A stretch of DNA of 64,000 nt from Amphiscolops sp. MND2022. Lineage: Eukaryota. Made by a program: the position numbers and the translations under genes. Where the stretch lies: positions 67,086,001-67,150,000 of the forward strand of contig OZ076409.1 of NCBI GenBank assembly GCA_964187785.1, given 5' to 3'. Positions within the stretch are counted from its first letter, which is position 1. Every line of letters begins with the position of its first letter. The notes beneath the pieces were generated by a model. It had not been told where the DNA came from. It saw only the letters and a list, made by a program, of their open reading frames with translations, and searched no databases. Below, in pieces: positions 12,111 through 37,323 of this stretch.

Positions 12111-12152
12111 GCACGTCGACCACAAGTTGTGCACGTCTGAGAGTTGTTAGAA

Positions 12153-12165
12153 TGGGCCCATAACC
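12153..12165 (-). promoter_or_regulatory. Copia primer-binding site, internal tRNA(iMet)-fragment type
   Basis: Minus strand reads GGTTATGGGCCCA, the motif used by Drosophila copia-like (Hemivirus) elements. Confidence 0.75.
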
Positions 12166-17535: not shown

Positions 17536-17635
17536 TGCTCGTATACCTCGAGGTTTTTGATAACCTTGATCGCTCCAGATCGAATCATTCTGACAAAAAA
17601 GTCTGACAAACAGGTACTAGAAAAATCGGCTCTAC

Positions 17636-18036
17636 TGAGCTGTTAAAAAGTTGTATGGTGGTTTCTTTTAGAAGTGTTAGTACTGACATAAGAAGTCTAA
17701 GATTTTAACAGCGGAGTCGTCTTATCTTTTATCTTGTAGCTAGCTAGTTCTGAGTGCAATCTATTTCTGAGATCTCAGTTCTTGAAGTATGGGAGGAAGA
17801 CCGATTGCTAGAATGAATTCTCAATTTCTCCGAGTAGATATATTCTATTAACTAGGGTAGGTTACATCAATTAACAATGTGACAGCAACAGGATGAATCA
17901 GGGGAGTTTGATACAGGATCTATTAAATGAAGTTTCTTAGTTTCTAAATTAGATTACATTTACTAATTGCTTTGGTTAAGAGTTCAGAGTATTTCAGATT
18001 TATAGAATCTTTGAGGACATGCATCATGGCATCACA
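17636..18036 (-). repeat. 3' LTR of giant element
   Basis: 401 bp, 4 mismatches to 34955-35355 by manual comparison. Confidence 0.97.
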
Positions 18037-19034
18037 ATCAACCGGGAATTTAAAATAAATTACATATATGCACTTTGGGTTTGAGGAGTTCTAGAAGTTT
18101 TTGTTATATGCATGGGTTTGTTTCATTTGTGTTGTACTAGAGTTGCATGAGTTTCGTTTTGTAGAGTACCATACTTAAGGAGTGAGAACAACCTAAGACG
18201 ATTTGACTTCTTACGTCATAGACGATTCAATTGGTGCAAAAAGGTTCAAGCAAGATTCAAGTTCTTTCAGTTTCTTTGACTGACAAGTTCTTTGAAGTTA
18301 TTGTTGACAACTATTTATCATTTCATGTTTCTTTTTCGTATCAGCCATCGGCTTGTTTGAAAAAATTCTTTCTTCAACATGAGTTAGTCAGCATTGAAAA
18401 TTTTTCAAGTTGAAGAATTAAAGCGTGAAGTCGTCAATGAGTTGTGAACCAACATTGGCGGGTATGTGAACCAAAAGTGAAGAAGTTTCGAAAAGTCAAG
18501 GTTCAAGTGAGAGTTCATTTTCAACAAAAGTGAAGAGTAGAGCAGAAGCAATAGTTGAAAAAAAAACTTTGGCTAGTTCAAGTTTCAAACATTGGAAAAC
18601 TAGAAGTGACATTTTTTAAGAGTTCTAAAGAAAAATTTGGAAAACTTTTTTCGAATGCTTTTGGGGATTAAAACAAAATTGTAGAACATGTTTTGTTAAA
18701 GAAAAAAATTTTTGTCCAAAAATCTTAGAAAATTTCTTGTACTGTAGGTAGGACTTGTGTTCTGTAAAAGATGGGGATTAGAGATTTATTTTTGGAGTGT
18801 ATAATTAGGTAAGATAATGTCAATGTACTATACACAATACAATGGAAGTAGATAATATTGTGGTTACAAGGATAATTATAGGTAGAATTTGGAAAGGATT
18901 ATTTTTAATGGAGGGGTAACTATACTACGATTAGAGGAGATTAAGATTAAATAAGAGTAGATAGCACTAAAGATTATATAAGAGTATATAGCACTATACT
19001 ATATGAAAGTTAGAATTTGATAGGTTACAAGAAG

Positions 19035-19343
19035 TTACAAGGTATATTTGTTAAATTTGATTATACAGTTCAGTTTGAAATTTGTATTGGCCATTGGAGT
19101 ATGAAGACCAGTCAAGAAGTCAGCAGTTGAGGTGTGAAGACCAGTCAAGAAGTCAGCATTTGAAGTGTGAAGACCACTCAAGAAGTATCGTGGAGTGTGA
19201 AGACCAGTGACGAGGACAACGTTTGGCAACGTCGATGAACCCAAAGTGGAGATGGATGTTGTTGACCATCGTGTGTGGGTGGAGTGAAGAGTTTCAGCAT
19301 GTGTAGGAGTTCTTTGAAGGAGTGATCGACAGCTACATCTCAA
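19035..19343 (-). CDS. Possible short accessory ORF with (L)TGLHT repeats
   Basis: Open frame of 102 codons with a non-ATG start. Contains four copies of (A/G)GT(G/A)TGAAGACCA (plus strand) at 33/33/30-bp spacing. May be a non-coding repeat. Confidence 0.3.
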   Translation of the reverse strand: MRCSCRSLLQRTPTHAETLHSTHTRWSTTSISTLGSSTLPNVVLVTGLHTPRYFLSGLHTSNADFLTGLHTSTADFLTGLHTPMANTNFKLNCIIKFNKYTL

Positions 19344-19417
19344 ACATCATTGAAGAAGAATGATGGATTCAAGAAGAGATGGAGGTGAAGAGTGATAAAA
19401 GTAAGTAGAATATTGGT

Positions 19418-19870
19418 TTAGTTGTAGAGAGGATGTTGGTGAGGTGGGTGTGCCTGATGTTGATGAGGATCATAGTGTTTCAGTTTCTGGGTATATCCAA
19501 AACTATGAAGCATCTCGTTGAATGCGTTGGTGGCTTCGTGGAGGGCAGCTTGAAAATATTGGTCTTTAGACGTGAACGCTGAGTTTAACACAAAAACGAC
19601 GTTAGAAGCCGTATCACAAATGGCAATTTTTGGTCCGGCGACATGAATCGTTGAATATTGTTCAAATGTAATGTGTTTCTTTTTGATTTGGGTGACATTA
19701 TATAAGACTTTCAGAAAGGCGATAAGAGATTTTGGCGTTATTTTATTGTTGTTTATCTCCAGGGAAAGTTTGTAGGCCATTGTGTGAAAAATAGCTGCTT
19801 TTAGGCTATGAACTTTTGAGTGGCTGGAAGTCATTGTAATTATATCTTGTATTTCAGCGTTGGTGGCCAT
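19418..19870 (-). CDS. Accessory ORF Z (150 aa, unknown function) of giant element
   Basis: Intact ATG-started ORF (GTCATGG context), globular-looking composition, His/Pro/Gln-rich C-terminal tail. Sense to the element. Confidence 0.7.
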   Translation of the reverse strand: MATNAEIQDIITMTSSHSKVHSLKAAIFHTMAYKLSLEINNNKITPKSLIAFLKVLYNVTQIKKKHITFEQYSTIHVAGPKIAICDTASNVVFVLNSAFTSKDQYFQAALHEATNAFNEMLHSFGYTQKLKHYDPHQHQAHPPHQHPLYN

Positions 19871-20288
19871 GACGAGAGAGTCCTGTAGAAGACGAAAAAG
19901 GAGAAGTGGAGATGTTCTGAAAGAGAATGGAAGGAGGAGGAAGAAGAATGGATGTTTCTAAAACAAAGGAAGTGTAAGAAGAATGACAATATCAAGTCAA
20001 AGATGTACAACAAAATTGGGTGCTTTAATGTATCATATGTAGTGTTGTGCTATATTGTCTTGTGTGTCTTATATTGTAGTGTTTTTAATAGAAATAGTTA
20101 GTTTTTTGACATGTACTGTAGGAAAAATTAGTGTACCTGAAAAATAGTCCTGAGATTTCATTCAAAAGCAAAAATTTACTTTAAATAAGTAGGTAAAAAT
20201 GAAAATACCTTGAAGGATGTGTCACAGATGTATCATAGAGTGTACCATAGAAGAAAAATTAAGAACTTTATATTACCTGTAGAAGATT

Positions 20289-21677
20289 TTAATGAAGATT
20301 AGTTGAGTTAAAAAGAGTAGTTATAGTTTCTAAAGCAGGTTGGATTGCTTGGGATGATTGAGTGATGCGTTGAGAGTCTAAATCGAGTGTCTGAAGGAGT
20401 TTGTGTGTTCTGTCGTAGCAGTGTAGTATATGTGTGAGTGTTGTGATAGGTGTTTCAGAGGAGTTTCGTTTATAGGGTTCAAGTAAATTTGTTATGTCGC
20501 GAAGTGTTCGGTTGTTTAATACAGAAAAAAGTTTGTCAGGAGCGTTTTTTATAGGTGAAGCGTTTGATTTTGGTTTATGTTCAGTTTTTTGTTCAGCTTG
20601 TACCATGAAAGAGATAGTTTTGGCAGAGATAAAGAGGAGTTCATTGTAGGAATACGTTTGCTTGTAGAGTGCTGTATAGTACGTTCTATCTTTATCGTCA
20701 AGTGGAGAAGAAACGAGGTGTTTAATAACAGTAAGATGTTTTGCAATTTGAGTAGGAATGTTGCAGGGCAACAAAAAATCATCGTAATGTATGAGATATT
20801 CTAGAGGTACAATAAGTGGACGTGAAGTATTGTTATATGGAAGCAAACAGAAGTATTGTTTTATAGGGTCATAGTTCCGAAGGTAGCCTGTTATACAGGA
20901 GTGGTCCAGAGTGTACATATTTGTCATTGTGAACGGTGATGTATATTTGTAATTGACAAAAATGTGATTTTGTGGTTTCGTGTATTGCAGGAATTTAGTA
21001 TTTGTCTGATGATGAGTAGCTTTTTGTGCTATAGAGAGAAAGGATGGATCAGATTCATCTGTTTTGAGATCGTATATAGAAGGTCGAAGAAAATTGAATT
21101 GGAGAGAGAAAATTTTAACTCCATTTTCGAGCCAATATTGGTATGTACCCATTCTTTTGGAAGCAATGGATGTGAAGAAGTCTTGATTTTTGTCATATAA
21201 GCGAAATGAATAGTCAGTAGGGTGCATATATAGAGTAGTTAGCTGTGCTTTGAAGACGAAATCGTCAGTAGAAAGAATTGAGATCAAATGATCATCGCGA
21301 TTCGTGCAAAGTGAAATTTTTGAAGGTATTGAAGGAGGATATATTGGTGATGAAAGAAAGATTGGATCTTTCATTATTTCATATCGTTTTTTTGGAGGAG
21401 GTGGTGTCGATTGTGTATGATCAGTATCATCTTGTGGAGGAGTAGGTTTTGGATTTTCATTTTCAACTTTTGTGTGTTCCATTGGTTCAAGAAAAATTGG
21501 AGGTGTTTGTTCTGAAGTCTCAATATAGAGAACAGGAGAATCATTTGAAAGAGGTCTAGTTGTTAGATCTGTTGGGGTTGCTTGTTCAAGCTGTGTTTGT
21601 AGGTCAATTTGTGCTTGTGTCATTGTTTTAAAAACATCAACAATCACAGTGTTATCTATTCCAAGAGGCCTTAGCAC
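20289..21677 (-). CDS. Accessory ORF Y (462 aa or more, unknown function) downstream of env
   Basis: Long uninterrupted frame. Contains PPPPKKR basic motif and a ~300-aa complex-composition region. 5' end probably damaged, originally extending to ~21830. Confidence 0.75.
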   Translation of the reverse strand: MLRPLGIDNTVIVDVFKTMTQAQIDLQTQLEQATPTDLTTRPLSNDSPVLYIETSEQTPPIFLEPMEHTKVENENPKPTPPQDDTDHTQSTPPPPKKRYEIMKDPIFLSSPIYPPSIPSKISLCTNRDDHLISILSTDDFVFKAQLTTLYMHPTDYSFRLYDKNQDFFTSIASKRMGTYQYWLENGVKIFSLQFNFLRPSIYDLKTDESDPSFLSIAQKATHHQTNTKFLQYTKPQNHIFVNYKYTSPFTMTNMYTLDHSCITGYLRNYDPIKQYFCLLPYNNTSRPLIVPLEYLIHYDDFLLPCNIPTQIAKHLTVIKHLVSSPLDDKDRTYYTALYKQTYSYNELLFISAKTISFMVQAEQKTEHKPKSNASPIKNAPDKLFSVLNNRTLRDITNLLEPYKRNSSETPITTLTHILHCYDRTHKLLQTLDLDSQRITQSSQAIQPALETITTLFNSTNLH

Positions 21678-21886
21678 TTTAAAGTTAAAGTACTATAAAT
21701 TTCACTAACGAGTGGATTTGTCAACTTTAGTTGAAGAGTTTTTGAAGACGGTTATTATTAGAGAAGTATTATTGGGCTGAGGAAGATGAACTTCTGCAAG
21801 AGTTTCGAGTGGTGGAGGAGTAGCAATTGTGAAGAAATAGTAGGCAAGTGTACTGAAAGAGAGTTAGAGAAAAACTGAGAGAGTGT

Positions 21887-24414
21887 TCAAGAAGATGGAG
21901 GAGGAAAAGGATAGTTTATCCGCGAATAAATTTTAATTGGTGTATCCGTAGTAGAAGTGACAGGATTGTTAATTAAAGTGTCATGTTGAGTAGTTAGATT
22001 GTCATTCGAGTGAAAGTTTTTATGAGTATAATTAGGAAGTGTAGGATGTTGAACAGGAGAGAAAAGAAGTGGAGTCGTTTTATGGTGAGAATTGTGGTGT
22101 CGTTTCGGAAAGAAGGTAAATTTAGGAAATTGAATTTTGTTAGATCGTTTAGTATAGAAACGTGGAGGGGAAGTAACATCGGTAGAATGGTTAATTAAAT
22201 TTGGAGAAGTGTCGATAAAATTATCTAAGGATTTGGATTTTAAAAGTGTACTTTTGGGTTTTTTGTTTTGAGTCTCATGGAGGTCACTGACCATTCGTGC
22301 TGTAAGAACATTAAAAAAACCATGTGCTATAGAACTAAGTAAAGTAATATTATTTTTGAGATTATATTTAATAGATTTTGTTTTGTACAGTTTTACAATG
22401 AGTGTAAGAGTAGCTTGTACGAAAAGAAATGTAGAAAAGTATATACCACATTGTGTGAGAATGTAACAAGGGTATCCAAAAAGTGCAATAAAAGCATCTG
22501 AAAACCATGTAGGTTTAAAAAGAGGAGTTAAATTCAAGAGTTTATCATGGAGTCCTATGCGTAATGTATTGTAAGGATTACCAGAATCTTGAGGGGAATC
22601 TGCATCGTAATTTGGAGTATTAGATGAAATGAAGGAATAACTAAAAGCTTTGCCTAGTAATTGGAGTGTAGAATCAGAATGTTTAGAAAATAAAATACGG
22701 TTCCAAAACTGATCAAGTTCTGCATTTGAATATATACCAGCATCTTGGGCTGTAAAAGTATTAGGGCGTATTGTAGTTTTGATTTGTGAGGGTGTAAACA
22801 TTAGTGGAGGTTTGCGTTTGATAGGTTCAGGTCCAAGAATGTAAAAGTCTTGATCGTCTGAATCAGGATCTAGTTCAATAATGTTACGTGGATTATTATC
22901 ACATTTAATTGGTGTAGCATAATCATAAGTTTGTCTTGTAATAGGATCAACGTACATTAAGGTATCTTTAAAGTGTATGGGTATATGGTCAAAGCATCTA
23001 TCTGCTTTGTATAAAGGAGATAAAAAATGAGGACAGTCATAAAGCCAGGCGGTTGAGCCTTCAACGTATAAGAAGTTACTTCTATTACCGGTTAAAAGGA
23101 AACCAGCAAGTTGAGGGTTTTGTACTGACATTGCGAGTATTGTAAGGAGTTGATTTCGTTCTAGTTCACATATTGTATGAAGAGTATTTAGTTCTTGTAC
23201 TGTCATTGATCGGAAGACATGATTAATAGTATAATCGATTTTGGTGTTTATATGTGCATCATAATTAATGGTAGCAAAATTGTTGAATACATTTAATGCA
23301 GGAAACACAAATTTGTTATTTGAAGTGTCCCATACTATTTTACCGGAAATATATTCATCAATCATGGAATGAGGATTGGGTTGTCCTGTATGCATATTGA
23401 AACCATCAGTGTATGTAACAAAAAGGTCTGAATATTGTGTAGAATAAAGAGGGTCTGGTTTACCACAAAAGGTTTGTGCTGTAGGGAAAACTTCAAATCT
23501 TGAAAGACTTGGATTATTTGGGTGTTGTGTATGAGGAGCATAAACATAGGGGAGTTTTTGTAGTGGGTTTACAGAAGCCATCTGCAAAGTAGCAGGGTAA
23601 TGTATGTCCATCAATTATCATGTCATTTGATGTGTCATCATATGTAAGTTCTACTTTAGAAACTTCTAGTCGCCAACTAACTAAGTTGACTTCGAATTGA
23701 TGATGAGCAGGACAGTTATGATAAGGGTTTTTTGTAGGGTCATATATCCAGTTTTTATCAGCAGGCATAAATGTAAATGTACCTGTATACATTTTGTTCA
23801 GTTGATATACAGTGAAAGGAGTTTGATATTGTTCTAAACGTTCTTGAAAATAATGGTCTTCTAAGAGTGTAAAGGTTTTGTTGTATTGAAGGTTATTCAG
23901 TATTTTATCATTTGTACCATTTAAATGTCGTATAATGTTTTTACATTCTGCTGGTTCAAGAGTAACAGGGAGCGGTAATGTATTATGATTCCATACGGTT
24001 CTATCAACACGGCGGTATTTTACGGAACCTTGAAAGCATATTTTTCTTTCTTTTTTTGCATAAGCAACACATTTAAAAGCTTTGATGCGTTTAGCTTTTG
24101 CTCGGACATATACACGGGCTTTAACACTTGCATGTTTAATGTCGGAAGGAGCATTGTTTTACATTGAGTAAATTAAATTGTCTCAGATTGTGTTGTTTTG
24201 CACAGTCATAATGAGAAACCATGAGATTTGTAATATTCGGGTCATCCGATGGAAGATAGTTGTCAGTGTCAGAGAGTGTTATGGGTATGGAAAAGGTAGA
24301 GTTAAATAAATGTAAATAAAGAATTAGAGTTGTTATGTAAAAGGTTGTATAGGGTTTAAAAAGATGTTGTATATTTAAGACCGGAGTATGGGTTACAGAA
24401 GAAAATATTGCCAT
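21887..24414 (-). pseudogene. env: env: class III fusion glycoprotein resembling chuvirus G / herpesvirus gB (two frame disruptions)
   Basis: Signal-like TTFYITTLILYLHLFNSTFS. N-terminal SHYDC...LLNVKQC. Core INTKIDY...ICELERNQL...GSTAWLYDC...DRCFDHIPI...PITRQTY...IKC. C-terminal TM segment YILTQCGIYFSTFLFVQATLTLIV and long tail. Several N-x-S/T sequons. Frameshifts at ~24160 and ~23545. Confidence 0.82.
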
Positions 24415-25597
24415 ATGTGATAGTGGGTATATTAAGATCGCGTTCAAATTCAATATGTACTACTTCGAAAGGAGCAGGAGAGGTTTTATGTTCTAACTTA
24501 GAAACGTGAAATATTGGGTGTGGATTTAATCCTTGAAATTTAACTTTGACTTCAAATTTAAGTTCTAGATTTGATGTCTGAAGGCGTTTTAGTTCTGTTT
24601 CTTTGCGTTTGTGAGATAAGAGGTCGTTATTGTTAATAAAACGTTCTGCAAGAATTGGAAGTCGGGGATCGTTTTGTGGGTCGTAGATGGTTATACCATA
24701 GACTCTAAGTGGATAGTCAGCAAAATTTGGAGTTGGAGGTCTAGAGTGTTCTGCAGTATAGTATTCGGGCAGTCTAATATGTGCAGGAACAGGAGTAGGG
24801 ATTACTACTTGTGAAAAGAGATCTCCTGATAGAAATGCAGTCTGTGGGTTAGATGAGAGTAATGGAGCGGTTTCAAAACCAGAAGTAAAATAAGGAGATT
24901 GAAAGAGCTCTGAAGATGGTGTGTCAGAGGACAATGGTTGAGCGTGTTGTCGTACAAGTCGTAATGCAGAATTGCTAGAAAGAGTCGAAAAATTGAGTGT
25001 TGAAGTGTCTGTACTAAGTCTACGTGAAGGAAGGTCACGTAGATTATATCTATGTTTAGGTACAAAAAGTGAGCTTGTGTCTTGTGATGGAGCGTAGTCT
25101 GAAGTATTATTGTCTAAGAGATTCGAGAGTGATGTAAAGGGTTTTCGAAGAGGTTTTAATGGTGGATAAAGTTTTGAAGGAGTAGTGCTAAGTTCTGAAG
25201 GTAATTTTAGTGGAGGTAGCTTTGTATATTCAGTATCAGGGATTTGTACAAGATTAAGTTGAGGTTGGAGTCTAACAGTTTTGATAGCTGTAGGATGTTT
25301 GTATGTTACGTATTGTTCAACACTTTCGGGGTTTGGTATGTGTATAATAGGAGTGTTAATAGGAGTTTGTTGAGGACGAGTGTTTATAGGAATTTCAGTT
25401 ATAGGTGGTCTGTGAAGAAGTGAGGAAGAGGTGGTTTCAGAGATGTATGATCTTGGTCTTTTAGAAGGAGTAGTAGGAGTTACATTACTAGAGTTTGTAG
25501 TGCTAGATACTGAAGATTCAGGTGGAGAAGGAATACTTGGAGCTGATGGAGATATATCAGAGGGAGGATCCAGGGTTGTTGAAGTGTTTTCAACAGG
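24356..25597 (-). CDS. ORF X: 414-codon Pro/Ser/Thr-rich open frame between integrase and env, no ATG
   Basis: Manual translation is stop-free from 25597 to the TAA at 24356-24358. The ORF track shows only its last 192 aa. Contains RYNLR. Confidence 0.7.
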   Translation of the reverse strand, partial: PVENTSTTLDPPSDISPSAPSIPSPPESSVSSTTNSSNVTPTTPSKRPRSYISETTSSSLLHRPPITEIPINTRPQQTPINTPIIHIPNPESVEQYVTYKHPTAIKTVRLQPQLNLVQIPDTEYTKLPPLKLPSELSTTPSKLYPPLKPLRKPFTSLSNLLDNNTSDYAPSQDTSSLFVPKHRYNLRDLPSRRLSTDTSTLNFSTLSSNSALRLVRQHAQPLSSDTPSSELFQSPYFTSGFETAPLLSSNPQTAFLSGDLFSQVVIPTPVPAHIRLPEYYTAEHSRPPTPNFADYPLRVYGITIYDPQNDPRLPILAERFINNNDLLSHKRKETELKRLQTSNLELKFEVKVKFQGLNPHPIFHVSKLEHKTSPAPFEVVHIEFERDLNIPTITYGNIFFCNPYSGLKYTTSF

Positions 25598-25683
25598 TTA
25601 TCTTTGAGATAACTTGTTATGGGTTATATTTCATTCAACCAGAGTGACTAGGTTTGAGTGAGCCAACGGATAGAATGACTAGA

Positions 25684-28600
25684 TTACAGTTGTGAAGGTG
25701 TAATAAAAAGTCTATAATCTAATTTGGGTTGTTGTCGTAGTTTATAGGGAGTTTTTGTGGTTCCGTCAATTTGAGGAGGAAGTGAAGTGGCTTGGTTCTT
25801 AGATGAGTGTCTTGATCTGTCACTAGAGATAATAGTATTAGGGGTATTAATTATATGTCTATATAAGGAGTTGTCATTGGTTGAGGAAGTCAAAGAATTG
25901 TCATTGGATGTTATAGATGGTGTATTCTGATTGGGTGTACTAAATGATGATGGTGTTACAAATGTTTGGGAATCTTCTTCAGACAACGATTCGTCTGAGT
26001 TAACAGGAGAAGAATCACTGTTTGCATATTTGGTAGGTTGTGGAATTTGAAATTGAGTTGTGTCTGAAAAGCGCATAAAACTACGCAGGTGTGGATATAA
26101 GAGTGGTTCTTTTGGATAATATGGAATTAAATGATTTCTGTTGACGTGTACTGTAGAGCCATCTTGTGCAAGTAGTGCATATGTGACGTCTGATAATCTA
26201 TCAAGAATTTTATATGGTCCAATCCGAAGGGGTTTTAGTTTGTCAGAAAAGTGAACGTGGGTAAAATTGCGTTTTAAAACAAAGGTACCAATAGGAAGGG
26301 GTTTACCTTCATGGTAAGTTTTTGTAATATATGCGTGTGAAATGATTTTTCTTAGAGTGTTTTCGTATACTGTAGAATAAATTTGTAACATAGCAGTTTC
26401 TACAGCGAGAAACCAATGTGGAATGGGTTTTGAAAGTGTTTTATAGAAAAATGGGTTTATATCGGATTTATCATAATGGCAGTGTGCTGGAAGTTGAGAG
26501 CAATATCGTGAAATACATGTTTTAGAGGTGTCTCGGTTAAGGTTCAAATCAAATGTAAGGGGTATTCTGGGTCGGGTGTGGAAAACAATTTCGTGAGGTG
26601 AAATGTTGAGTTCTGAAAGTGGTTGTGAATTATGTGCATAAGCGTACATATGGACTTGGAATGCCCAATCTTTAGGTGTGTCATGTAAGAACATCCGTAA
26701 ATGGGTACCAAGATTTCTATTTTGTACTTCAACAAGGCCGTTTGTCCAAGGAGAATAAGCTGTTCGAGGAGAATGACGAATTCCCATAAGTGTGCAAAGG
26801 TGTGCCATTTCTTTATTAACATATTCTGATCCACGATCAGTGACAAGATATATGGGTGGTCCAAATTTAATAATCCAATGGTGTAGGAGAGTTTTGATAG
26901 CAGTATTTGCGTTGTTTGATTTGATGGGTACTGTAACAACAAAGTGACTAAAAGCGTCAATTATCACGTGTATATAGGATTTGTTGTGAGAAGGAGGATT
27001 AATAGGTCCTTTAGTGTCCATTGAAATTCGATAGTTGAAAGATGGAGCATGTTCTGAAAAAGATTGTGTGGGAGCAGTTTAAATTTTCATATTAAAGTGT
27101 TTGTTTCGTTGACATTCAATACAATCATGTATAAAAATGGAAAGCCAATTTTCAAGGAATGGGATATAGTAATATTGTTTGAAGGTATTGTAGGTGATTT
27201 TCATACTAGTATGAGAGTGTTCATGGAGTTTGTCAAAAACAGTTTTAAACAGTCGGAAAGGTAGGCATATACGAATAGTGTCTTGTACAAAATTTGGAGT
27301 AGTGGATTGGTTAATAACAGTGGGGTTTGTAATATATAGACTAATAAGATTTGTGGATTCGTCAATGAAAAGTTGTGAAAATCTTTTGTAATATACATTT
27401 AGAAATGGAGTACCAGTGATAACAGGTGTTATAAATTCGGGTTTTTCATTATTTAATAACCAAGAATAAACAGTTCTAAGAACCGGATCTTGAGATTGTT
27501 GTTGTTGAAGAGTTTTTATGTCTAATGAGTAATCATCTGGAAGGAAGAAACCTTGAAAATAGTTTTTGTACTTAAAGAATGATCTATCATAAAAAGGTAC
27601 GATTTGTTGACAGTGTGTGAGAGATGGTAAATTTGGTTGTACATTTATTGCAGAAATTGATTTTTGTGAGGTATTGTGAGTTGGTTGTTTAAGAGTAGAA
27701 TAATTTTCTGTTTGTAATGTTGTGTCTTGTAAGAAGGAAGAGTCAGATTTTGGAATTCTGGTGTAAATATGATCTTCGTCATCACTTGTAACGTCAATAT
27801 CATTAAGTAAGAGAGATTGTTGATGAAGGGTTTTGTTGTTCTTTTTGGTAGGTGTCTTGAACTTAGTTTGAAAAGGAGTTATGGATTTGAATGAGAAGGA
27901 TTGTAACGGTTTGACAACAATTTCATTTCCTTTATCTTTGATACGAATAGAGAATTGATCTGTACCATAATCAGCAAGAATTGGATGAGAGTCATGTTTT
28001 TGATGAGGTAAAATTTCTTCATGTTTTATTAAGTAATGTACAGGTTTAAGAGTGTTATCTTGTAAAAGTGCAAAATCGATTTGTGGTGGGAGGTGTTTAT
28101 GTTTTAATTGGTTTAGTTGTAATTCAGCTTTTGTAAAGGTGCGACTCAACATATCGGCAACAGAGAGATTTTTTCCAGGAGTGTGAATTCTTTTGAGTTT
28201 TGAAAATTTTGTCAGTTGCGTTTGAGCTCTATAGAAACGAGGACTGAGATTACCTTTCTTGGTAAAATAATGTAATAAAGGTTTGTGGTCAGTAAAAATG
28301 TGTATTGGATGTGGAGAACCTATGATGAGAAATTCATAGATTTGAAGTGCGTGTACTATACCAAGAAGTTCTCTATCAAGTGTGGAGAGTTTTTGTTCTT
28401 GTGGATTAAGTATACGAGAGTTGTACGATATGACTTTCATTTTGTTTTGTTCATTCAATTGAAATAAGACAGCGCCTAATCCTAAGGGAAGCGTCAACTG
28501 TAATGAAAAATGTATGTTTTGTATTTGGTATTGTTTATTCTGTTTCAGAAGTGAAAGACATTTTAAGTTTTTGGAATAGACTTTCGTGTTCGTCTGTCCA

Positions 28601-30135
28601 TTTCCAAGGAGTGTTCTCATGTAAAAGATCGTAAAATGGTTTGAGGTTAATATGTAGTTTTTCAATAAATTTGGTGTAAAAATTGAGTGCGCCAATGAAA
28701 CTCATTAGGGCAACTTTGCCAGTTGGAGAAGGGATCTTATGAATAGCTGCAATTTTTGGATGGATTGGTTTAATTGTATTGTAACCAATTTCATGTCCAA
28801 GGAATTTGACTTTAAGAAGCATGAAAAAGGATTTTTCAGGGGCTAGTTTAAGATTGTTTTATGTACTAATAATGTGCAATTGTTCTATGAGTTGAAACAT
28901 GTGTTCTTTAGAATCAGATAAAAGTAATATATCGTCAATGTAGACAAGAGCGAAACCTTGTTCTATAAGAGTTTTAAAGAAAGTAGACATTTGTTTTGTA
29001 AAGAAGTTTGGTAGTCCTTTGAGACCATAAAAGCCTCTGATAAAAGCGAAAAGTTTGTCTCCGGAGGAGAAACTAGTAAGTTTTATAGTATCTTCGTCAA
29101 GAGGTGTATGTGCATAGGCATACATAAGGTCAATAGCGGATTTGTAGTTTTTGTTTGCGCGTGCTAATTGTGGAGCAAGAGGTTCAATAGGCCAAGATTC
29201 ATCAGATTGTTCTGTATTGGAGTTAAGATGTCGAGCGTCTAAAACACATTTTATTGTATCTCCCTTGGGGATTATAATAAGAGGATTTAAATAAGTTGTG
29301 CCATAAACGGGTTTGTCTTGAGGAGAAGAACCAATTTGTTTGATAATGTTATATTTTTCGAGTTCTTTGAGAAGTACGTTAAGTTTGTCTCAGTAGTGAA
29401 TAGGGACTTTGGAAGGACGTTGTGTCATAAGTTGAGCATTTGGTTTAAGTCTTACACGAAAGGGTGTTGAAATTTTTCCAACATCGTTTTTATGAGTTGC
29501 ATAACATGTTTTATATTTGAGTAACATATTGCAAAGAGTAATGTATTCTGTATCTGTGAGGTCAGAAAATTGGAAGTTAAATTTATTAATGAATTTTAAA
29601 TTTTCAGAAGTGTATGGTAGGGAAGGAAAAATGCGTTTTTCAGAAGTGTGAGAAGTAGGTTGAACGTTATATAAAGGAGAAGTTTGATTTGGAATGTCAT
29701 CATTTGTCATATAACTTTGATGTAGAGAGAATTGAGGAGGAGGGGTTGAAGGATCATCATATTGTACAATATAGTTGGTCTGTGGAAGTGGTTCAGTAAT
29801 ATCAGGATGATAAGTATGGGTAACGTTATGTATTAAAGTATTAATGTCGTTAACTTGGAAGAATTTAGGTTTTTCATTAGTAATTGGAACTTCAATGTAT
29901 CCAATATGTCCTGTAGGTAGAGTTGCAACATGTTTTGAAGTGTTCTGAATAATAGTTGCACAAATATCTGGTTTGTCATCGGTAAATACTTCAATAAAAT
30001 TGAAATTTGTACGGAATTTGGTTGCAAAATAGGTATGAGGTACTGAAGGAAAGAAGTGGTTTTGTGGTGTGGTTGTAAAATGAAGATTATGATAATTTTT
30101 GATCGGAAAGTGTGCAATTTTGGAAGATTTGGGTT
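25684..30135 (-). pseudogene. pol: pol: RT, RNase H and integrase, with several stops/frameshifts
   Basis: RT LDARHLN, IDLMYAY, YIDD, VKFLGH. RNase H VDAS...RELLGIV...FTDHKPL...ADMLSR. Integrase HEHSH...CIEC zinc finger, MDTKGP/TDRGSEY/NGLVE catalytic D-D-E, GPY motif RIGPYKI. Confidence 0.95.
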
Positions 30136-33100
30136 TTAGACGTATCTGAGATTTTGAGTTAATTCTATAAATGTAAGAGAAGTATGGATAATCTTTAGAT
30201 GGAGTGTTGTGAATTTTGTATAATTTGGGTGTGTTTTTGATTGGTATTTAAATTCGAGTGTAAAGTCTTGTATGTTTATGTTTTGTATATTGTCTTCAAA
30301 GAATGGTGTGCCAAGGATGTTGTATTTGATATCAGCTACTGCGAAGGGTACTGAAAAGTAACGAGAGTTTTCATCAATAGTGGTGTTCAAGATTATATCT
30401 GCATAGTGTAAAATAGGAACTTCAGTTTGGTTTGCAACGGTTAATGTTTTGGAATTTCGAGTTGGTCCAACATCAGAGGTGTGATTTGATCTAATATCTA
30501 GGAGTTTTGTAAGAGTTATGTATGTTGGGTAATTGAGTACAGAAATGGAAGCACCGCTATCTAGGAGGAATGCAATTTCTAATCTAGATGGGTTGTCTCT
30601 TTGTACTATACTTGATGGGGTGTGTACATATAGAGTATAAAACCAACTTGTAGGTGTGACAGCATTTGCCATTGCTGTTGGGTGATACATGTGTACTTCA
30701 AATTTGATAGGGTCAGTTTGATCTTGTTGTTGTATCATATTGATTTTATTTCTGGAATTTGAGTGTGAGCGAGATCCAGAAAATCTAGAGTCTCTTGGTC
30801 TTGATGGTGGTCTATATGAATTTGTGTACTTTGTGAATTTGTTATCTCTTGAATAGGAGCGTGATCTGTATCTAGGACGAGAGTTTTGTCTATATGGGGA
30901 TCTATAAGAAGATCTGTAAGGAGAACGGTAAGATCGAGAATCACGTTTGTATGTATCATATCTTGATCTGGAGTAGTGTGGAGGAGTAGTACTTTTGTCA
31001 TAACGAAATCTGTCTCTATCTCGAGATGTAGAACGGTATCGGTTTTGTGAATATTTTTGGTTATAAGAGTTTTCTCGTGAAGTACTTCGACTTCGGTATC
31101 GATTATCATAGTGTTTTGTTCTGTCATTGGAAGGAGAACGAAAGTACTGAACGAATGATTTTTGTGGAGATTTTGATCGAGCATATGCTTCTCGTTTATC
31201 TTCTTCATCTCGTTGTTTTTTGAAACAAGCAGAAATGGAGTGATTTGTTCTATGACAGTATGAGCAATATTTTTTATATGCAGGTTTATTTTTGTTATTT
31301 GGGTCTTTGGGTTGTGTATACATAAGTTGTTCTTGAGATGGGTGATCTAGAGTTTGAGTTTTCAATTGTTTTGTAATATTATTGATTTCAAGTGCAAGAT
31401 CGTGTGTTCTGATTTTGTCGTTTGCAATATCTTCAGCGTCAACAAGTTTTACTAAGGTATGAAAAGGAATTGAAGGTTCTAAGACAGTGGAGGTGTGTTT
31501 TACTTGTCTTTTATTTGCAAAATCTTTAAGGTTTTTTGGAAGTCCTTTTGTAAAGATTTCAAAACAATTAAGGTTTATAGTAGATGCATTCTCATTACAC
31601 CAGCCTTTTTCAACCAGTTGTTGAACTTTGAGTGCAAAATGACGTACTGTTTCATTGTCTTTCTTTGTTAAATTAGAGGCTTCAACTTGAGCATAGTAAG
31701 CGTTCTTTTGTGAGGAAAATTGTTTTTTGAAAGCTTGTACAAAAGCGTGCCAATCATGTTTATAAGTGTCGTTTAAACGGATGTACCAGCTTAGTGCTGT
31801 GCCTGTTAGAGAGCATTGTATAAAAGCCATGCGACGGGCGTGCCAAAATTTATATTCATGTTCCGATGTAGGTTGTAAACCTAAGGAAAATGTAACACGT
31901 GCCTCATTATGTTGTAAATATTCTTCAGGTGTATAGTTGTGATCAAGTCCATCAAAAGGTTTATTGGGTTCTGATATAGAAGTAGAAGAATTAATATATG
32001 TTGGGTGTGACATAGTGTTATGAGACATAGTAGATGGAGGTGTTGTATTGTATGTGGGGTTATTGGAAATATTAGGTAAAGAAGTAGTTGAAGTACCATG
32101 AAAGTGAGGGTTAGTTCTAATTGTTGTCGAAGGAGGATTTGGTATATGAAATTGAGAAGTTTGTAATGTAGGAGTGATTGTATTGGATGTATGTTGAGAA
32201 AAAAGAGTATTTAATTGGTTGGATGTATTGTAATTTATCTGAGATTGTTGTGTATGACTTGGATTAGTACTGGTGAGACTGTATGATAATGGATTAGTTA
32301 ATATAGGTTGTAATGGAGGTCGAGAAAGCTGTCTTGCAGTAGTATAATCTGTAGATGGGTTAGAATGGATGGTGTTAATGTTTAAGGTAGTTTGTGTAGT
32401 TTGTACTGAATTGGTTTGAGCTGGAGTATAATTCGAAGTTTGTATTTCAGAGGATAATGGTGGAGTTGGTGTTTGAAAATGTACTATATTATTGTTTTGT
32501 GCAATGTAGGGTGTATTTGATGAGCTTTGTTGAGGAGTGTCATGGGTGTTTATCTGAGTTGAGAATTGGGGTGGAACAGAAGGTGGATTGTAATTTCGAG
32601 GAAATATTATTTGTGTCTGAGAGGGTTGTGTAATGTTAGTGTTAGATGTAGATAAAATAGAGGTATTGTCTGGATTTGTATTTGAAGTGTTGTCTTGATT
32701 TTGGTTTGTAAATTCATTTTGTGTGATATTGTGGGTAGGAACTAGTAGAAGATTTGAATCATCGGTTATTGTAAAACTTCGTGTATTTTGTACTGTTTCT
32801 TCAGAAAGTTCTGATGTATTGTGAATTGTATTTGTTTCAGAAGGATTTGGTTGTTGCATATCTGAGATTTGTGATAATGGTGGGTATGATAGTTGTTCTT
32901 GAGGAAGATCAGGATTTTGAAAAAGATTAGTAAGGGCTTCTTGTTCTGGGGATTCTTGTTCTGATTGGTCTGATTGTTGTCTTGTATATGAAGGTTCAAC
33001 ACTAGAGGTTTGTTCTTCAGGAGTTGTTTCATGAGAAGTATCAGGTGTAGTAAAAGGTCTGTTGTCTGATGTTTCAGAATGTTCAAGTACAAAGTTGTGA

Positions 33101-33879
33101 TCTAAGGTTATTTGTTCAAAATGTGTAACATTTAGTGAAATAAGATCTCGGTAATGTAAATAATTGTTTTCATTTTTTATGATGTATGGTAAGAGTTCTA
33201 TATGTGGTAATATTTGAGGGAAGTTAATATAGGCTTGTTGATCTTTTTGTTCCCATATTAGTTGATAGTTAAATCTAAGAAACTTTAATAAGAATTGTGT
33301 AAAAATTTTGACTTGAGGTATAGTGTCATCTGTAAGAATAATGTTGGTAAAGAATCTGTACTGAAAATGTTTTATTTGTAAGATATCTCGTTGTAACCAA
33401 TAATGAGCATTATCATGTCGTTGGACTTTTGTGTCAAGATCTGGGACCTCGAAATCTTCAGATCTATGTTTTAGTTCATGTAAATCAGAAGGACAATAAG
33501 GTGGTGTATCTTGGTTTTCCTTGAATTCAATGAGTTTTGGCATGTAAGTGTGAAAAACATCTTGTATAGAAAGTGTAATATTTTTTGGGTGTATAGTTCT
33601 ATAAAATGTTCCAGAGTTTATTCCTTTAACAGGGTTAAAAATAACTTGAAAAGGGATTTTTGATGGTGTAATGTCAAGTGTTTTATAGCGGATATAATAT
33701 AGATAAGAATCACAATGTTCTCGTACTAATGGAATAGTATGTAATATATGGGGTTCTGTTTCAAATGGAAGTGGGTTAGTGTACTGAAAGATAATGTTTT
33801 GTAGAAAAGGTGTTACATCTTGTATAAGAGATCGATTTTGTCTTTTGTCAGTAGTGACTGTAAATGGAGTGGGGAGCAT
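30136..33879 (-). CDS. gag: gag-protease polyprotein (1247 aa to first frameshift)
   Basis: Capsid-like PFDG...LTGTALSWY...ETVRHFALKVQQL. CCHC knuckle CSYCHRTNHSISAC. RS-rich block. Aspartic protease FLLDSGASISVL...ILGTPFF. Confidence 0.95.
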   Translation of the reverse strand: MLPTPFTVTTDKRQNRSLIQDVTPFLQNIIFQYTNPLPFETEPHILHTIPLVREHCDSYLYYIRYKTLDITPSKIPFQVIFNPVKGINSGTFYRTIHPKNITLSIQDVFHTYMPKLIEFKENQDTPPYCPSDLHELKHRSEDFEVPDLDTKVQRHDNAHYWLQRDILQIKHFQYRFFTNIILTDDTIPQVKIFTQFLLKFLRFNYQLIWEQKDQQAYINFPQILPHIELLPYIIKNENNYLHYRDLISLNVTHFEQITLDHNFVLEHSETSDNRPFTTPDTSHETTPEEQTSSVEPSYTRQQSDQSEQESPEQEALTNLFQNPDLPQEQLSYPPLSQISDMQQPNPSETNTIHNTSELSEETVQNTRSFTITDDSNLLLVPTHNITQNEFTNQNQDNTSNTNPDNTSILSTSNTNITQPSQTQIIFPRNYNPPSVPPQFSTQINTHDTPQQSSSNTPYIAQNNNIVHFQTPTPPLSSEIQTSNYTPAQTNSVQTTQTTLNINTIHSNPSTDYTTARQLSRPPLQPILTNPLSYSLTSTNPSHTQQSQINYNTSNQLNTLFSQHTSNTITPTLQTSQFHIPNPPSTTIRTNPHFHGTSTTSLPNISNNPTYNTTPPSTMSHNTMSHPTYINSSTSISEPNKPFDGLDHNYTPEEYLQHNEARVTFSLGLQPTSEHEYKFWHARRMAFIQCSLTGTALSWYIRLNDTYKHDWHAFVQAFKKQFSSQKNAYYAQVEASNLTKKDNETVRHFALKVQQLVEKGWCNENASTINLNCFEIFTKGLPKNLKDFANKRQVKHTSTVLEPSIPFHTLVKLVDAEDIANDKIRTHDLALEINNITKQLKTQTLDHPSQEQLMYTQPKDPNNKNKPAYKKYCSYCHRTNHSISACFKKQRDEEDKREAYARSKSPQKSFVQYFRSPSNDRTKHYDNRYRSRSTSRENSYNQKYSQNRYRSTSRDRDRFRYDKSTTPPHYSRSRYDTYKRDSRSYRSPYRSSYRSPYRQNSRPRYRSRSYSRDNKFTKYTNSYRPPSRPRDSRFSGSRSHSNSRNKINMIQQQDQTDPIKFEVHMYHPTAMANAVTPTSWFYTLYVHTPSSIVQRDNPSRLEIAFLLDSGASISVLNYPTYITLTKLLDIRSNHTSDVGPTRNSKTLTVANQTEVPILHYADIILNTTIDENSRYFSVPFAVADIKYNILGTPFFEDNIQNINIQDFTLEFKYQSKTHPNYTKFTTLHLKIIHTSLTFIELTQNLRYV

Positions 33880-33894
33880 TATATGATATTAAGT

Positions 33895-34128
33895 TTAATT
33901 AGTATAATAAGATTGCCATAAAGGATAGATGTATCGGAAAAGAAGATATTTTGTATTGAATTGTGAGTTATATGGTAAAAAGTGATCTATGAAAACCACT
34001 TGTAAGAAAATAGTAAGTACAATACTTATGAAAAGAAGGAATGGGTTTTGTATATATTGAATAAGTATATGGAAGGTGTGGTAGATACTAAGTAGTCCAA
34101 AAAGAGGTAGTACTATACTTGTTAACAT
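33895..34128 (-). CDS. Small hydrophobic ORF (77 aa, 1-2 predicted TM segments) immediately upstream of gag
   Basis: ATG-started; hydrophobic segments IVLPLFGLLSIY and PFLLFISIVLTIFLQVVFI. Ends 15 nt before the gag ATG. Confidence 0.55.
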   Translation of the reverse strand: MLTSIVLPLFGLLSIYHTFHILIQYIQNPFLLFISIVLTIFLQVVFIDHFLPYNSQFNTKYLLFRYIYPLWQSYYTN

Positions 34129-34147
34129 AGAAGAAAAAGGTTGTGCT

Positions 34148-34270
34148 TCAAAGTTTTGGTATGAATGAAATTAAGAATTTGTCCAGAAAAAGTGCAAGAC
34201 CAGCAATGATAGCAACAAAGAACCAAAAGCAGACAATGAGTTTAACTATAGTGTCTACTGAAGGCGGCAT
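34148..34270 (-). CDS. Small single-TM ORF (40 aa) upstream of gag
   Basis: Manual translation MPPSVDTIVKLIVCFWFFVAIIAGLALFLDKFLISFIPKL*. Ends 19 nt before the 77-aa ORF. Not in the ORF track. Confidence 0.5.
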   Translation of the reverse strand: MPPSVDTIVKLIVCFWFFVAIIAGLALFLDKFLISFIPKL

Positions 34271-34585
34271 GTACAATGAAGAATGTGTCCAAGAGGTTGT
34301 ATTAAAATTTGTTTTATATCGGTGTATGAAAAATGAAAGTTATATAAAGAAATATGTGAGGTATGTGTTATATATTTTAATTGTTATGTATTTGGATCCG
34401 TAAACTAGTTTTAAAAGAGTTTTGTATGTTGTTTGTACTGTAAAAGAGGGAATAAGAAAGGTATTATAAATATGTTATGTAGAAAATATGTGTTAAATAT
34501 GTGTGCCAACTTTAAAGTTGATCCAAGCGGCTAGAACCAAAGAGATTTCTACTAGCAGGTATCGCTGGATAGCAGTGTAGAAGGG

Positions 34586-34757
34586 CCAACACGTATCGCA
34601 GGTCTGCGGTTGGAACGGAAGAAAGAGAAAAAGCCAACACGAATTCACTCAGTGGTGGTTGGAACGAAAAATTTACTGACAGGAATTACGTCAAGAAACG
34701 TAGTCAGAACCAAGAAATATGACTGACAGGAATTACGTTGAAAAACGCAGTCAGAAC
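34586..34757 (-). promoter_or_regulatory. Array of four bulged stem-loops in the 5' leader (candidate packaging/dimerisation signal)
   Basis: Plus-strand units CCAAC..GTTGG (x2) and CTGAC..GTCAG (x2). Each has an A(C/G)G(A/T)AT bulge, an upper stem and a trailing AAC. Confidence 0.55.
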
Positions 34758-34934
34758 CATAGCAACACGGATCAATTTCAGATAGAAATTGGTTGCAACG
34801 TTGAAGTTAGTAACGATAGGCGATGTTGAGAGGTGGAGAAACTGTGTGTCGAACAAAGAGATAGCGTATGAGAAAGTCGAGGAAAGAGGTACAACAAATG
34901 TAGATGTGTGAAATAAATGGGAGAGAAAAAAAGA

Positions 34935-34952
34935 ATTTTCTTGGTCGCACCA
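34935..34952 (-). promoter_or_regulatory. tRNA primer-binding site of giant element
   Basis: TGGTGCGACCAAG... begins 2 nt after the 5' LTR. Cognate tRNA not identified. Confidence 0.8.
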
Positions 34953-34954
34953 AT

Positions 34955-35355
34955 TGAGCTGTTAAAAAGTTGTGTGGTGGTTTCTTTTAGAAGTGTTAGT
35001 ACTGACATAAGAAGTCTAAGATTTTAACAGCGGAGTCGTCTTATCTTTTATCTTGTAGCTACCTAGTTCTGAGTACAATCTATTTCTGAGATCTCAGTTC
35101 TTGAAGTATGGGAGGAAGACCGATTGCTAGAATGAATTCTCAATTTCTCCGAGTAGATATATTCTATTAACTAGGGTAGGTTACATCAATTAACAATGTG
35201 ACAGCAACAGGATGAATCAGGGGAGTTTGATACAGGATCTATTAAATGAAGTTTCTTAGCTTCTAAATTAGATTACATTTACTAATTGCTTTGGTTAAGA
35301 GTTCAGAGTATTTCAGATTTATAGAATCTTTGAGGACATGCATCATGGCATCACA
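34955..35355 (-). repeat. 5' LTR of giant element
   Basis: TGTGATG...GCTCA in sense orientation, followed by the PBS. Confidence 0.97.
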
Positions 35356-37323
35356 CTACGCTTCAAATGTGATTAAAACTAAACTAAAACATTTGAAACG
35401 ACTAAAACATTTGAAACGAGTGAGGAAAGTTCATGATTAAGCTCAATACGGAAAAAGACTCAAATATGACGTAAAACAAGGGGCTCCATGGCTTTGCGCT
35501 ATTTCCGAGGTAAAGCAACATTACAGTGCATAGGCAAGCTATTTTGCTGCTTGTCGTAGAATCCGGGACACGAAAATTCCGCTGCTTGTCCGTGGAATGC
35601 TTGTTTGTGGAATCCGGGACTTATGACGTAATTTGCCAATTTTGCACGGTTAAAGGTATGGTCGTGGAATCCGAGATATTGAAAGCACAAAGTTGCGCTT
35701 TGAGCAATAAGGCTTGCCTGTGCACTCTAATGAAAAAAGAACTTTTAACAACCATAAACACCTCATTTGACCGAGGAAAATTCCAGAGAAAATTGAGCCA
35801 GAAATTTGACCCAATGAACTGAAAGAAACTAAAAGCTGAAACCAAGACTGCGCGTCCTCGCAACATTCGTTAGTAGATGGGTTGATTTCAAAGTGTAAGA
35901 TTTGAATGTCTTGAACTACCTGCTTCTTAGCGAAGCCGAAGTGAAAGCAAAAGAAAATTATTAAAAACCATTCAGTCATTTTTATTTTAGCAGTCGTATT
36001 TTAGCACTCCAGAACTTAAAATACCAATATAATGTTTGGTTTTCTGCGATTATATTCACATCTCCAGCAAGACGGTGGAATCCAAAGTTCCGGAAAAATG
36101 GTGTTGTTGCATTCAAAACAAGTGTAAGTACTACGACAAGTATTCAGCAGAAAAAAATAGAAAATTAAGTTTAGACTTTCGACCATCTCTTTTTATGACC
36201 AGCTCATTTTGCTTTGTGTTTTCTAATTGAACGAGTTGAATATGATTCAGGAAGGTAATAGTATATTTCCTGTTTTATATTTATCCAATTGTTTCAATTT
36301 TGACGGAACGTATTCATGTTACCAAGTATATCAAATTCTAAGATCGTGTCAGATGGCGTTAAAGTGTTTATGCAGCTATACTCCCTCTTCATCAAACGCA
36401 ACTAATAGGTTCAATAAAACTGCAACTGCTAATCAACAAAAGAAGGAGGGTCTGAGTGAGACCCGTATTACCTGGTCTGAGTGAACACTTTTCAACATTT
36501 AGTCTTAGAGAATACTTTTGAGTAAATGGATATAATTAACACCAGGATTTAATCGAAACTAAGCGTCCTCTGATTCGTCAGCTTTTCGGACTTAGGCCGG
36601 ATACGACGCATTGCCTTACTTGGCCGTACAATTATGTTAAAACAGCACCTTCAATTATATTAATACAGCATTTCGATTGGTCGAATATTTGTTTGGAACG
36701 TTTACTTCAACACGCCGAGCGAGCGGGCACTTGAACTCGTTTCCTACTCGCTGTGCATTATGTGTTGAATGTCAATGTTGAGTATTACATGCAACAAAAT
36801 AACAGCTCAATTTTTCATAATGTCTCATAAGACTTTAATGTAAAAAAAATAGTTTTTTGAGCCCTCTGATAATTTTACTTTCATGAAATTGTTTCTGGTA
36901 GTTCCCTTTGGTAGTTGGACCAACTGAAAAGATAAATTTTTGGTCCACACGCGGGTTGACGTTACATGCAATTTAAACAAAAGTTCCCATATAATGAGAA
37001 CCGCCACCTTCAGAGGCTGGAAGCAATAGAGCCACATTCGTAATTTGTATCTGCGAACGATACATTGCATGTCAGAACTCCGTTGAAATGAAAATATAGT
37101 CACTCAGATTGCTCCCAGCCACTCTTTAGTTATTAACTAACTCTTTCGATATATTGATGATTGGGAATTTTTTCCGGTTTTGTGATAGTTTCGGCGTTTT
37201 GATTGAGAAATTTCAAGTAATTTCATCAGTGTATGCGTTGAATGGCTACATTATCGTAAGTTTCTATCATAGCTCCAGGCTGACCACACTCTTGGGCTTA
37301 AGTTTACGGTTCCAGTTTGACCA

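Follow-up and report, generated by a model that had tools for sequence, protein, structure and literature searches.

A Ty3/Gypsy endogenous retrovirus-like lineage in Amphiscolops with a predicted gB-type envelope and conserved accessory genes

Multi-gene accessory programmes around env are a textbook trait of vertebrate complex retroviruses, and the locus described here raises the question of whether a Ty3/Gypsy element can have a comparable organisation. The window that was analysed is a 64-kb stretch of the genome of Amphiscolops sp. MND2022 (GCA_964187785.1, contig OZ076409.1, positions 67,086,001 to 67,150,000). Window positions 17636–35355 hold a 17,720-bp element on the minus strand, bounded by long terminal repeats (LTRs), with the gene order sORF1-sORF2-gag/pol-X-env-Y-Z (ORF, open reading frame; sORF, small ORF). 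A sequence-only reading, made without database searches, had regarded it as a complete, recently integrated Gypsy provirus and as a candidate for an undescribed system. At a rough probability of 0.7, we consider the element to represent a Ty3/Gypsy endogenous retrovirus-like lineage with a gB-type envelope and a stable set of trans-acting accessory genes, as in complex retroviruses.

Conservation and selection of the accessory ORFs

In the assembly (1.07 Gb, 1,929 contigs), ORF Y of family A, to which the window copy belongs, gave 95 scored copies at 95–100% identity among 8,568 candidates. A stop codon interrupts 10 of the 95, the copy ranking being one that favours open frames. Family B, 68% identical to A, is represented by 90 scored copies at 98–99%, and the more distant families C and D were found by way of a 39%-identical homologue. 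For each family one 3′ and one 5′ stretch were read, each from a different copy. The orders sORFs-gag/pol and IN-X-env-Y (IN, integrase) are kept in all four families, down to about 35% protein identity (A versus C: X 34%, Y 35%). The element is present in well over a thousand copies; the A/B-type families alone occupy at least 1,705 sites, corresponding to up to about 3% of the 1.07-Gb genome if full length. One homologue, P0136, is only 44–50% identical to the best scored copies in this genome, and therefore probably comes from another host. No relatives were confirmed in viral and metagenome contigs.

The ratio of nonsynonymous to synonymous divergence (dN/dS) was calculated pairwise by the Nei-Gojobori method for A versus B and C versus D. 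For the A/B core, it is 0.02 for reverse transcriptase (RT), 0.05 for IN, 0.05–0.07 for the env ectodomain and 0.21 for the env tail, and for the A/B accessory ORFs 0.16 (X), 0.11 (Y), 0.33 (sORF2) and 0.39 (sORF1, where the interval of the ratio of proportions, pN/pS, reaches 0.99). ORF Z has a saturated dS in A/B and a pN/pS of 0.31. The C/D values are 0.03 for IN, 0.09 for X, 0.07 for env, 0.06 for Y, 0.27 for Z′ (the ORF in the place of Z), 0.08 for sORF1 and 0.18 for sORF2, with a pN/pS of 0.07 for a third sORF. Three shadow-frame controls gave 1.33, 1.10 and 0.80. With dN/dS of 0.06–0.39 against 0.80–1.33 for the controls, the accessory ORFs are not neutral, and their conservation in sister copies, on which the proposal of a complex organisation depended, holds in four families. 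Between A and B, the four genes IN, X, env and Y have similar synonymous divergence (dS 1.3–1.7), which shows that these genes have travelled together and argues against a nested insertion or a late capture. The extra ORFs are thus real genes under purifying selection, inherited with pol across the four families.

Two side observations concern the genomic arrangement of C/D-type copies. Copies lie 17–19 kb apart at G000:C2:91.72–91.74 Mb, C487 and C9:59.48–59.50 Mb, which suggests tandem arrays and a length near 18 kb, and two C/D-type LTRs (L037:1–2100 and L048) adjoin long (TAGTA)n microsatellites, which may reflect target preference or repeat seeding.

Gag-Pol, primer and classification

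Pfam matches occur in the Ty3/Gypsy order Retrotrans_gag, RVT_1, RT_RNaseH, Integrase_H2C2 and rve. In the sister loci, gag continues into pol in a single frame that encodes an N-terminal domain, a low-complexity spacer, capsid, one CCHC knuckle, an RS-rich segment, protease (PR), RT and RNase H, followed by a bridge of about 300 aa and an IN with a C-terminal YxLR. PR is known from an LDSG motif read in the sequence and has no Pfam hit, and Gag is without Gly2. In the bridge, where gB-env errantiviruses have a 'mini' or 'pseudo' domain after RNase H, a conserved block of about 100 aa is present that has no PDB match, and a sequence search with Pfam and PDB profiles revealed no second RNase H behind a tether domain. 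A profile of RT-RNase H from four regions matches Ty3 continuously (135 bits, E 2e-38). The same profile gives 108 bits for a polyprotein entry that we take to be caulimoviral-type, and 84 bits for foamy Pol, where RNase H is not covered; the likeness was judged against only a few solved structures. For IN, the profile places deltaretroviral-type integrases (E 5e-15) slightly above Ty3 (E 4e-13).

The primer-binding site (34942–34952, minus strand) is an 11-nt complement of the tRNA-Met 3′ end, and its 10-nt core, TGGTGCGACC, is identical in all four families. At L039 and L042 (G000:C3:85600620–85600780 and C13:52354100–52354260), an LTR end is joined to a reverse copy of the 3′ part of tRNA-Met with its CCA region, and the copied parts match tRNA-Met genes in L038. 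The primer is tRNA-Met. Taken together, the LTRs, target-site duplication and tRNA primer site, the order PR-RT-RNase H-IN, and an RT/RNase H nearest to Ty3-type enzymes support assignment to Ty3/Gypsy (Metaviridae) on sequence grounds, in agreement with the Gypsy affiliation first proposed, and the class I Env and retroviral RT expected of Retroviridae are not found.

A 20-mer of the tRNA-LTR junction in L039 and L042 recurs at several loci, where the primer tRNA was copied past the primer site. In L038 (118–2163), a family-D element lies 7 nt from a tRNA-Met gene within a tandem tRNA-Met array. Ty3-like targeting of tRNA genes, to which this arrangement hinted, was rejected since a tRNA is found in 0 of 10 further family-D LTR flanks.

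Envelope glycoprotein

Env matches PF24664 with E 7e-20 in the window copy and E 3e-21 in a sister frame. In the Atlas, it matches clusters of Monjiviricetes, herpes gB and rhabdovirus G proteins at 0.93–0.96, with a recognition score that the tool rates as weak, and a sequence match in PDB was not found. By these matches, Env is predicted to be a gB/Monjiviricetes-type class III fusion glycoprotein. The sister loci encode it in one frame of about 910–920 aa, with an N-terminal signal peptide or hydrophobic segment, a membrane anchor and a cytoplasmic tail of 150–200 aa. The gB-like ectodomain is located between signal peptide and anchor, and the gene lies 3′ of pol, the arrangement that characterises gB-env errantiviruses. 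The tail carries PPxY in all four sister loci, and the motif is missing from the window copy. Because Env is a PF24664 class III protein, and no R-x-K/R-R furin site occurs in any of the four ectodomain-bearing env sequences scanned, the insect errantivirus type, with a baculovirus F-type env and a furin site, was rejected. A public protein of 715 aa (P0035) fuses the N-terminal half of env to ORF Y, and probably stems from an internally deleted copy.

ORF X and its start codon

The ORF X frame (25597–24356, minus strand) has no ATG, and an in-frame Met is absent in 5/5 loci. Conservation begins, in all five loci, at an in-frame CTG flanked by A at −3 and by G at +4 (AnnCTGG), although this codon accounts for just 1–5% of their Leu codons. 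Counted from this CTG, X has 405 aa (24356–25573). Met is rare among X homologues (70 of 37,708 residues in 120 sequences, versus 746 of 44,266 in 120 Y homologues). The genome was searched for A/B-type families with a degenerate 29-nt pattern, in which G+4 is fixed and TTG is excluded from the synonymous set; this retrieved 1,705 sites with A−3 and CTG, 13 with CTA, CTT or CTC, 13 without A−3, and 0 with the reversed control. The bases between A−3 and CTG vary among 100 listed sites (ATC, ACC, AAT, AAC). Because these sites are related copies and not independent events, the weight of the case rests on the conservation across families. From this conservation, X very probably starts at a CUG in optimal context. 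In A and B the env AUG lies within X, 59 nt from its end; in C and D it follows the X stop by 1 or 8 nt.

X consists of a Ser/Pro/Thr-rich low-complexity N-terminal part and a conserved C-terminal domain, modelled as two helices and a five-stranded β-part (predicted local distance difference test, pLDDT, 65). A comparison of this domain with 48,161 chains gave a best Z of 3.9, and no viral match reached E ≤0.001, so that the fold can be called neither new nor known. RYNLR is present in X of all four families, and Y[NK]LR in 74 of 120 X homologues; the IN tail carries YxLR in all four families as well. A peptide of foamy Gag from prototype foamy virus, GGYNLRPR, is described as binding the nucleosome acidic patch through Tyr and Arg (PMC12125541). 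Since the peptide uses the Tyr and Arg of this motif, chromatin binding by X is a lead, not a result.

The remaining ORFs

Two membrane micro-ORFs precede gag, as had been noticed from the sequence alone. sORF1 (34148–34270, minus strand; 40 aa, single-pass, weak start context) is recognisable in all four families with 31–54% identity across them. sORF2 (33895–34128, minus strand; 77 aa) contains one or two hydrophobic segments and stops a few codons short of the gag ATG; it is only weakly recognisable between A/B and C/D. In the latter, its stop overlaps the gag ATG as TAATG. Families C and D contain a third membrane micro-ORF of 37 aa (L037:3125–3238, L038:3106–3219), resembling a duplicate of sORF1. 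A transmembrane segment is present, and neither Gly2 nor a polybasic patch occurs in any sORF examined. An identity as fusion-associated small transmembrane (FAST)-like proteins of the MDG1 sORF2 type is not supported, as both the Gly2 myristoylation motif and the polybasic patch are lacking.

ORF Y (20289–21623, minus strand) encodes a soluble protein of 444 aa; its AlphaFold model has a pLDDT of 40. ORF Z (19418–19870, minus strand) encodes 150 aa, with 150 scored copies at 93–100%. In families C and D it is replaced by Z′, an ORF of 305 aa found in 129 scored copies, and Z and Z′ show no significant match to each other. Searches of Pfam, PHROG, PDB (profiles for Y) and the Atlas returned no family or structure match for X, Y, Z or Z′. 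The last slot, occupied by either Z or the unrelated Z′, is the only exchangeable one. Z′ (L035:8602–9519, L036:8624–9520) has a Ser/Thr-rich N-terminal part, a basic helical middle and a Cys cluster. Among 29 family-A loci screened with strict patterns, 24 have a donor-like CAG/GTAA past the Y stop and 10 an acceptor-like site ahead of Z, both being candidate splice sites only. Contigs of one public run, of unrecorded kind and possibly from the source sample, contain no splice joint, which is evidence neither way on expression.

State of the window copy and neighbouring features

Both LTRs of the window copy (5′, 34955–35355; 3′, 17636–18036; minus strand) are 401 bp long with TG...CA termini on the element strand. 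A gap-free alignment confirms the 397/401 identity first reported, and CTAC is duplicated at both flanks (35356–35359 on the 5′ side, 17632–17635 on the 3′ side). A strong strand skew is uniform across 18–35 kb and ends at the LTRs. By coordinate arithmetic, 7.65 kb separate the IN stop (25684) from the 3′ LTR (18036), and X, env, Y and Z occupy about 72% of it, so that the description of some 7.6 kb filled mostly by sense ORFs is accurate. In gag-pol (25684–33879, minus strand), the frame shifts near 30.2 kb and again near 28.5 kb, and in-frame stop codons occur at 29390, 28859 and 27079. Env (21887–24414, minus strand) is split into three pieces: its frame shifts near 24.15 kb, and about 170 nt that a sister locus and a public contig contain are deleted at 23551. 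The provirus is therefore complete in structure, with LTRs, duplication and all genes in order, but not in coding capacity; with pol and env broken, it is a defective, dead family-A insertion. The 1% LTR divergence makes it young, as recent integration would require, although families B and D look younger still (B ORF Y copies 98–99% identical; LTR starts 99.3–99.7%). About 0.5% decay per lineage since insertion would suffice to introduce a few stops into AT-rich coding DNA of 12 kb.

The leader (34480–34780, minus strand) contains repeated hairpins (repeat D14) that are kept in A and B and form a candidate packaging or dimerisation signal. A compensatory change was seen in only 1 of 69 predicted pairs, leaving the structure unproven, and Rfam gave no match anywhere in the window. 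The 3′ untranslated region (18037–19417, minus strand) includes 33-nt tandem repeats (19094–19222) and a block at about 18037–18520 that is conserved between families (67% over 544 nt), extending slightly into the LTR. Directly ahead of the 3′ LTR (18037–18070) there is no purine-rich tract; A and B share a short CCCGGT-GAT motif where a polypurine tract is expected.

Elsewhere in the window, a degenerate Ty1/Copia-type element is found at 9090–12621 (direct repeats 85–88% identical; RVT_2 and SH3_retrovirus remnants). A small element at 16873–17535, 100 bp from the 3′ LTR, has 45-nt inverted ends and internal tandem repeats. Positions 39858–40596 and 62494–63234 form a long inverted repeat pair, 71–80% complementary, in strongly A/T-skewed DNA. 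An RVT_1 fragment is located at 44666–45229, and a 382-aa open frame with a domain of the major facilitator superfamily (MFS) of transporters at 50847–51995, for which the only homologues found are five unnamed proteins.

Comparison with known elements

A gB-type env on Ty3/Gypsy elements has been described across metazoans, as 'ancient errantiviruses' (Chary and Hayashi, PMC13524379). The present lineage shares with them the Ty3/Gypsy pol, a gB-like env with signal peptide and anchor, the gag-pol-env order and multiple copies. It differs in its accessory ORFs, none of which is reported in the main text of that study, where the terms 'accessory' and 'extra ORF' occur 0 times. The prefilter described there allowed a pol-env gap of ≤1,000 nt and 10 kb in total, and manual steps reached 3–5 kb downstream in some groups; since X fills a gap of about 1.3–1.7 kb, the prefilter would tend to skip the lineage described here.

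The MDG1/412 group resembles it in having sORF1 and sORF2 between LTR and gag, with a transmembrane micro-protein (Voichek et al., PMC11952523). As described there, MDG1 elements are env-less, and their sORF2 has one transmembrane segment, a polybasic patch and, in most cases, a myristoylation motif at Gly2, whereas both sORFs here (three in C/D) are hydrophobic and without these marks. Cer1 of C. elegans, likewise an invertebrate Ty3/Gypsy element, is described as expressing a Rev-like accessory export protein, CERV, from a separate mRNA (PMC10309623). Unlike the present elements, Cer1 has one accessory protein with a proven export function, and its likeness to X, Y and Z is by description only. 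Burro of planarians, Ogre of plants and rotifer elements with ORF3 of the Vesta/Juno type are also large gypsy elements with extra coding capacity (PMC6431247, PMC5408684). Accessory ORFs in giant gypsy elements, among them extra ORFs close to env, have been described (PMC6431247). Burro is described as having a mononegavirus-like env region, thousands of copies and a length over 30 kb, but its domains and env form one polyprotein of about 5,000 aa, an arrangement not seen here, and Ogre has one or two extra ORFs (PMC6431247). The rotifer ORF3s are, in their description, single recognisable enzymes or env (PMC5408684).

The open literature yielded no described element with such a layout, although one may be held by sources outside that scope, namely Repbase, Dfam, GyDB, subscription papers and the errantivirus study's sequence repository. 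The suggestion of an undescribed system is thus upheld for the layout in the open literature, but not for the ingredients, each of which has a precedent. What is new is the joint, deeply conserved deployment of known ingredients, together with the CUG-started ORF X.

Complex retroviruses such as foamy viruses and HIV-1 have accessory genes past env and an ORF that overlaps the env start (vpu/env), and foamy Gag lacks Gly2. These traits recur here, and the motif in X resembles YNLR of foamy Gag. The RT lineage is a different one, the envelope of complex retroviruses is class I, and the likeness is one of layout, no sequence homology having been found.

Alternative explanations

Other interpretations of the 3′ region and of the lineage were weighed against the same evidence. 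It is hardly credible that the 3′ region represents neutral cargo or an insertion nested in the element, with ORFs open through base composition alone. The G-poor element strand does give several long shadow frames, but neither the gene order kept in four families, nor the codon-position bias and low dN/dS next to controls near 1, agree with this, and a repeat scan of the window found no internal LTR-like repeat and no second duplication within the element. The possibility that the 3′ region is a separate insertion, raised with the original description, is discarded on the same grounds together with the like dS. It is also very improbable that the element is a true retrovirus, foamy-like or from a sister lineage. 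Accessory ORFs past env, a length of about 17 kb like that of fish foamy-like endogenous retroviruses as described (PMC6431247), and the first rank of deltaretroviral integrases would fit such an origin. The continuous RT/RNase H match to Ty3, which foamy Pol does not equal over RNase H, the Ty3-type RT_RNaseH and Retrotrans_gag domains, and the class III env all speak for Ty3/Gypsy.

Two further alternatives accept the genes and dispute their use. ORF X might extend Pol, or might be an exon spliced to an upstream AUG exon (in gag or a sORF, for example), with CTGGAT serving as an RNA or promoter signal. In C and D, pyrimidine tracts ending in AG can be identified by eye between the IN stop and X, the YxLR motif is common to X and the IN tail, and spliced accessory ORFs and internal promoters are described for Cer1 and for Tor, the latter with an internal env promoter (PMC10309623, PMC4402516). 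We nevertheless regard this alternative as improbable. The invariant bases are exactly A−3, CTG and G+4, while −2 and −1 vary; protein conservation starts at the CTG codon; and a spliced exon would have no need to lose Met. An IN-X frameshift fusion was rejected because the IN/X frame offset differs between A and B, which counts against a fixed frameshift. It is unlikely, though less so, that the lineage is an ordinary gB-env errantivirus-type element whose extra ORFs aid intracellular replication (RNA export, chromatin tethering or anti-silencing), and which is non-infectious or uses env in the gonad only. The use of CERV by Cer1 (PMC10309623) offers a parallel, neither a signal peptide nor a membrane segment occurs in X, Y or Z, and infection is not required for high copy number. 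However, the env ectodomain is constrained like IN, and this constraint and the retained PPxY tail argue for a working envelope stage.

Several observations weigh against the reading of a complex-retrovirus-like lineage that we prefer. Each dN/dS rests on a single pair of loci, and purifying selection shows that the genes serve the element but does not show that it is infectious. The hydrophobicity of the Env anchor is only moderate (best 19-residue mean 1.4–1.8). Between the CUG and env there are other AUGs, two in A, three in B, one in C and none in D, and AUG depletion is significant only in D (P 0.001; A 0.05–0.06, B 0.09, C 0.29). With out-of-frame AUGs persisting in three families (A, B and C), leaky scanning alone is not established as the route to env. 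Finally, YxLR comprises four letters only and could be due to chance or serve another purpose.

Proposed biology and implications

The lineage is real, ancient and highly successful; it carries env on a Ty3/Gypsy backbone and is organised like a complex retrovirus, with several accessory ORFs under selection around env. From the layout of the ORFs, a translation scheme can be proposed that is, as a whole, slightly favoured. The genomic RNA would yield the sORFs and Gag-Pol by leaky scanning or reinitiation, with weak start contexts and close stop-start spacing. X and env would share one subgenomic mRNA, on which the inefficient CUG lets ribosomes reach the env AUG, and Y and Z would be made from further spliced or internally started RNAs. 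The HIV vpu/env message is an analogy for the arrangement of X and env.

For the particle, judging by sequence motifs, the odds are about even that enveloped particles pass between host cells, their budding aided by PPxY in the Env tail, given a Gag that lacks Gly2 for myristoylation. More speculative, and resting on analogy, are the roles of the soluble proteins: X would bind nucleosomes via RYNLR as a regulator or tether, and Y or Z would serve in RNA export or counter host silencing, which we consider doubtful as a set. The exchangeable last slot fits a host-conflict gene. The most far-reaching version, an independently evolved and still spreading Ty3/Gypsy 'complex retrovirus', is less likely than not. 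It would combine a class III fusogen, budding via the Env tail, and five to six regulated accessory proteins, among them a CUG-initiated chromatin-binding regulator co-translated with env, two to three membrane micro-proteins and a swappable anti-host gene. Such a lineage would be old enough for its families to have diverged until synonymous sites were saturated, and would occur in one or more further hosts (P0136).

An accessory programme fixed in a Ty3/Gypsy lineage with a class III envelope would mean that complex organisation evolves convergently, and that screens for compact gag-pol-env elements miss such lineages. The lineage supplies five to six orphan protein families under strong selection and, at genome scale, a natural signature of a retrotransposon starting translation at a non-AUG codon, in a family abundant enough for study by RNA sequencing and proteomics.

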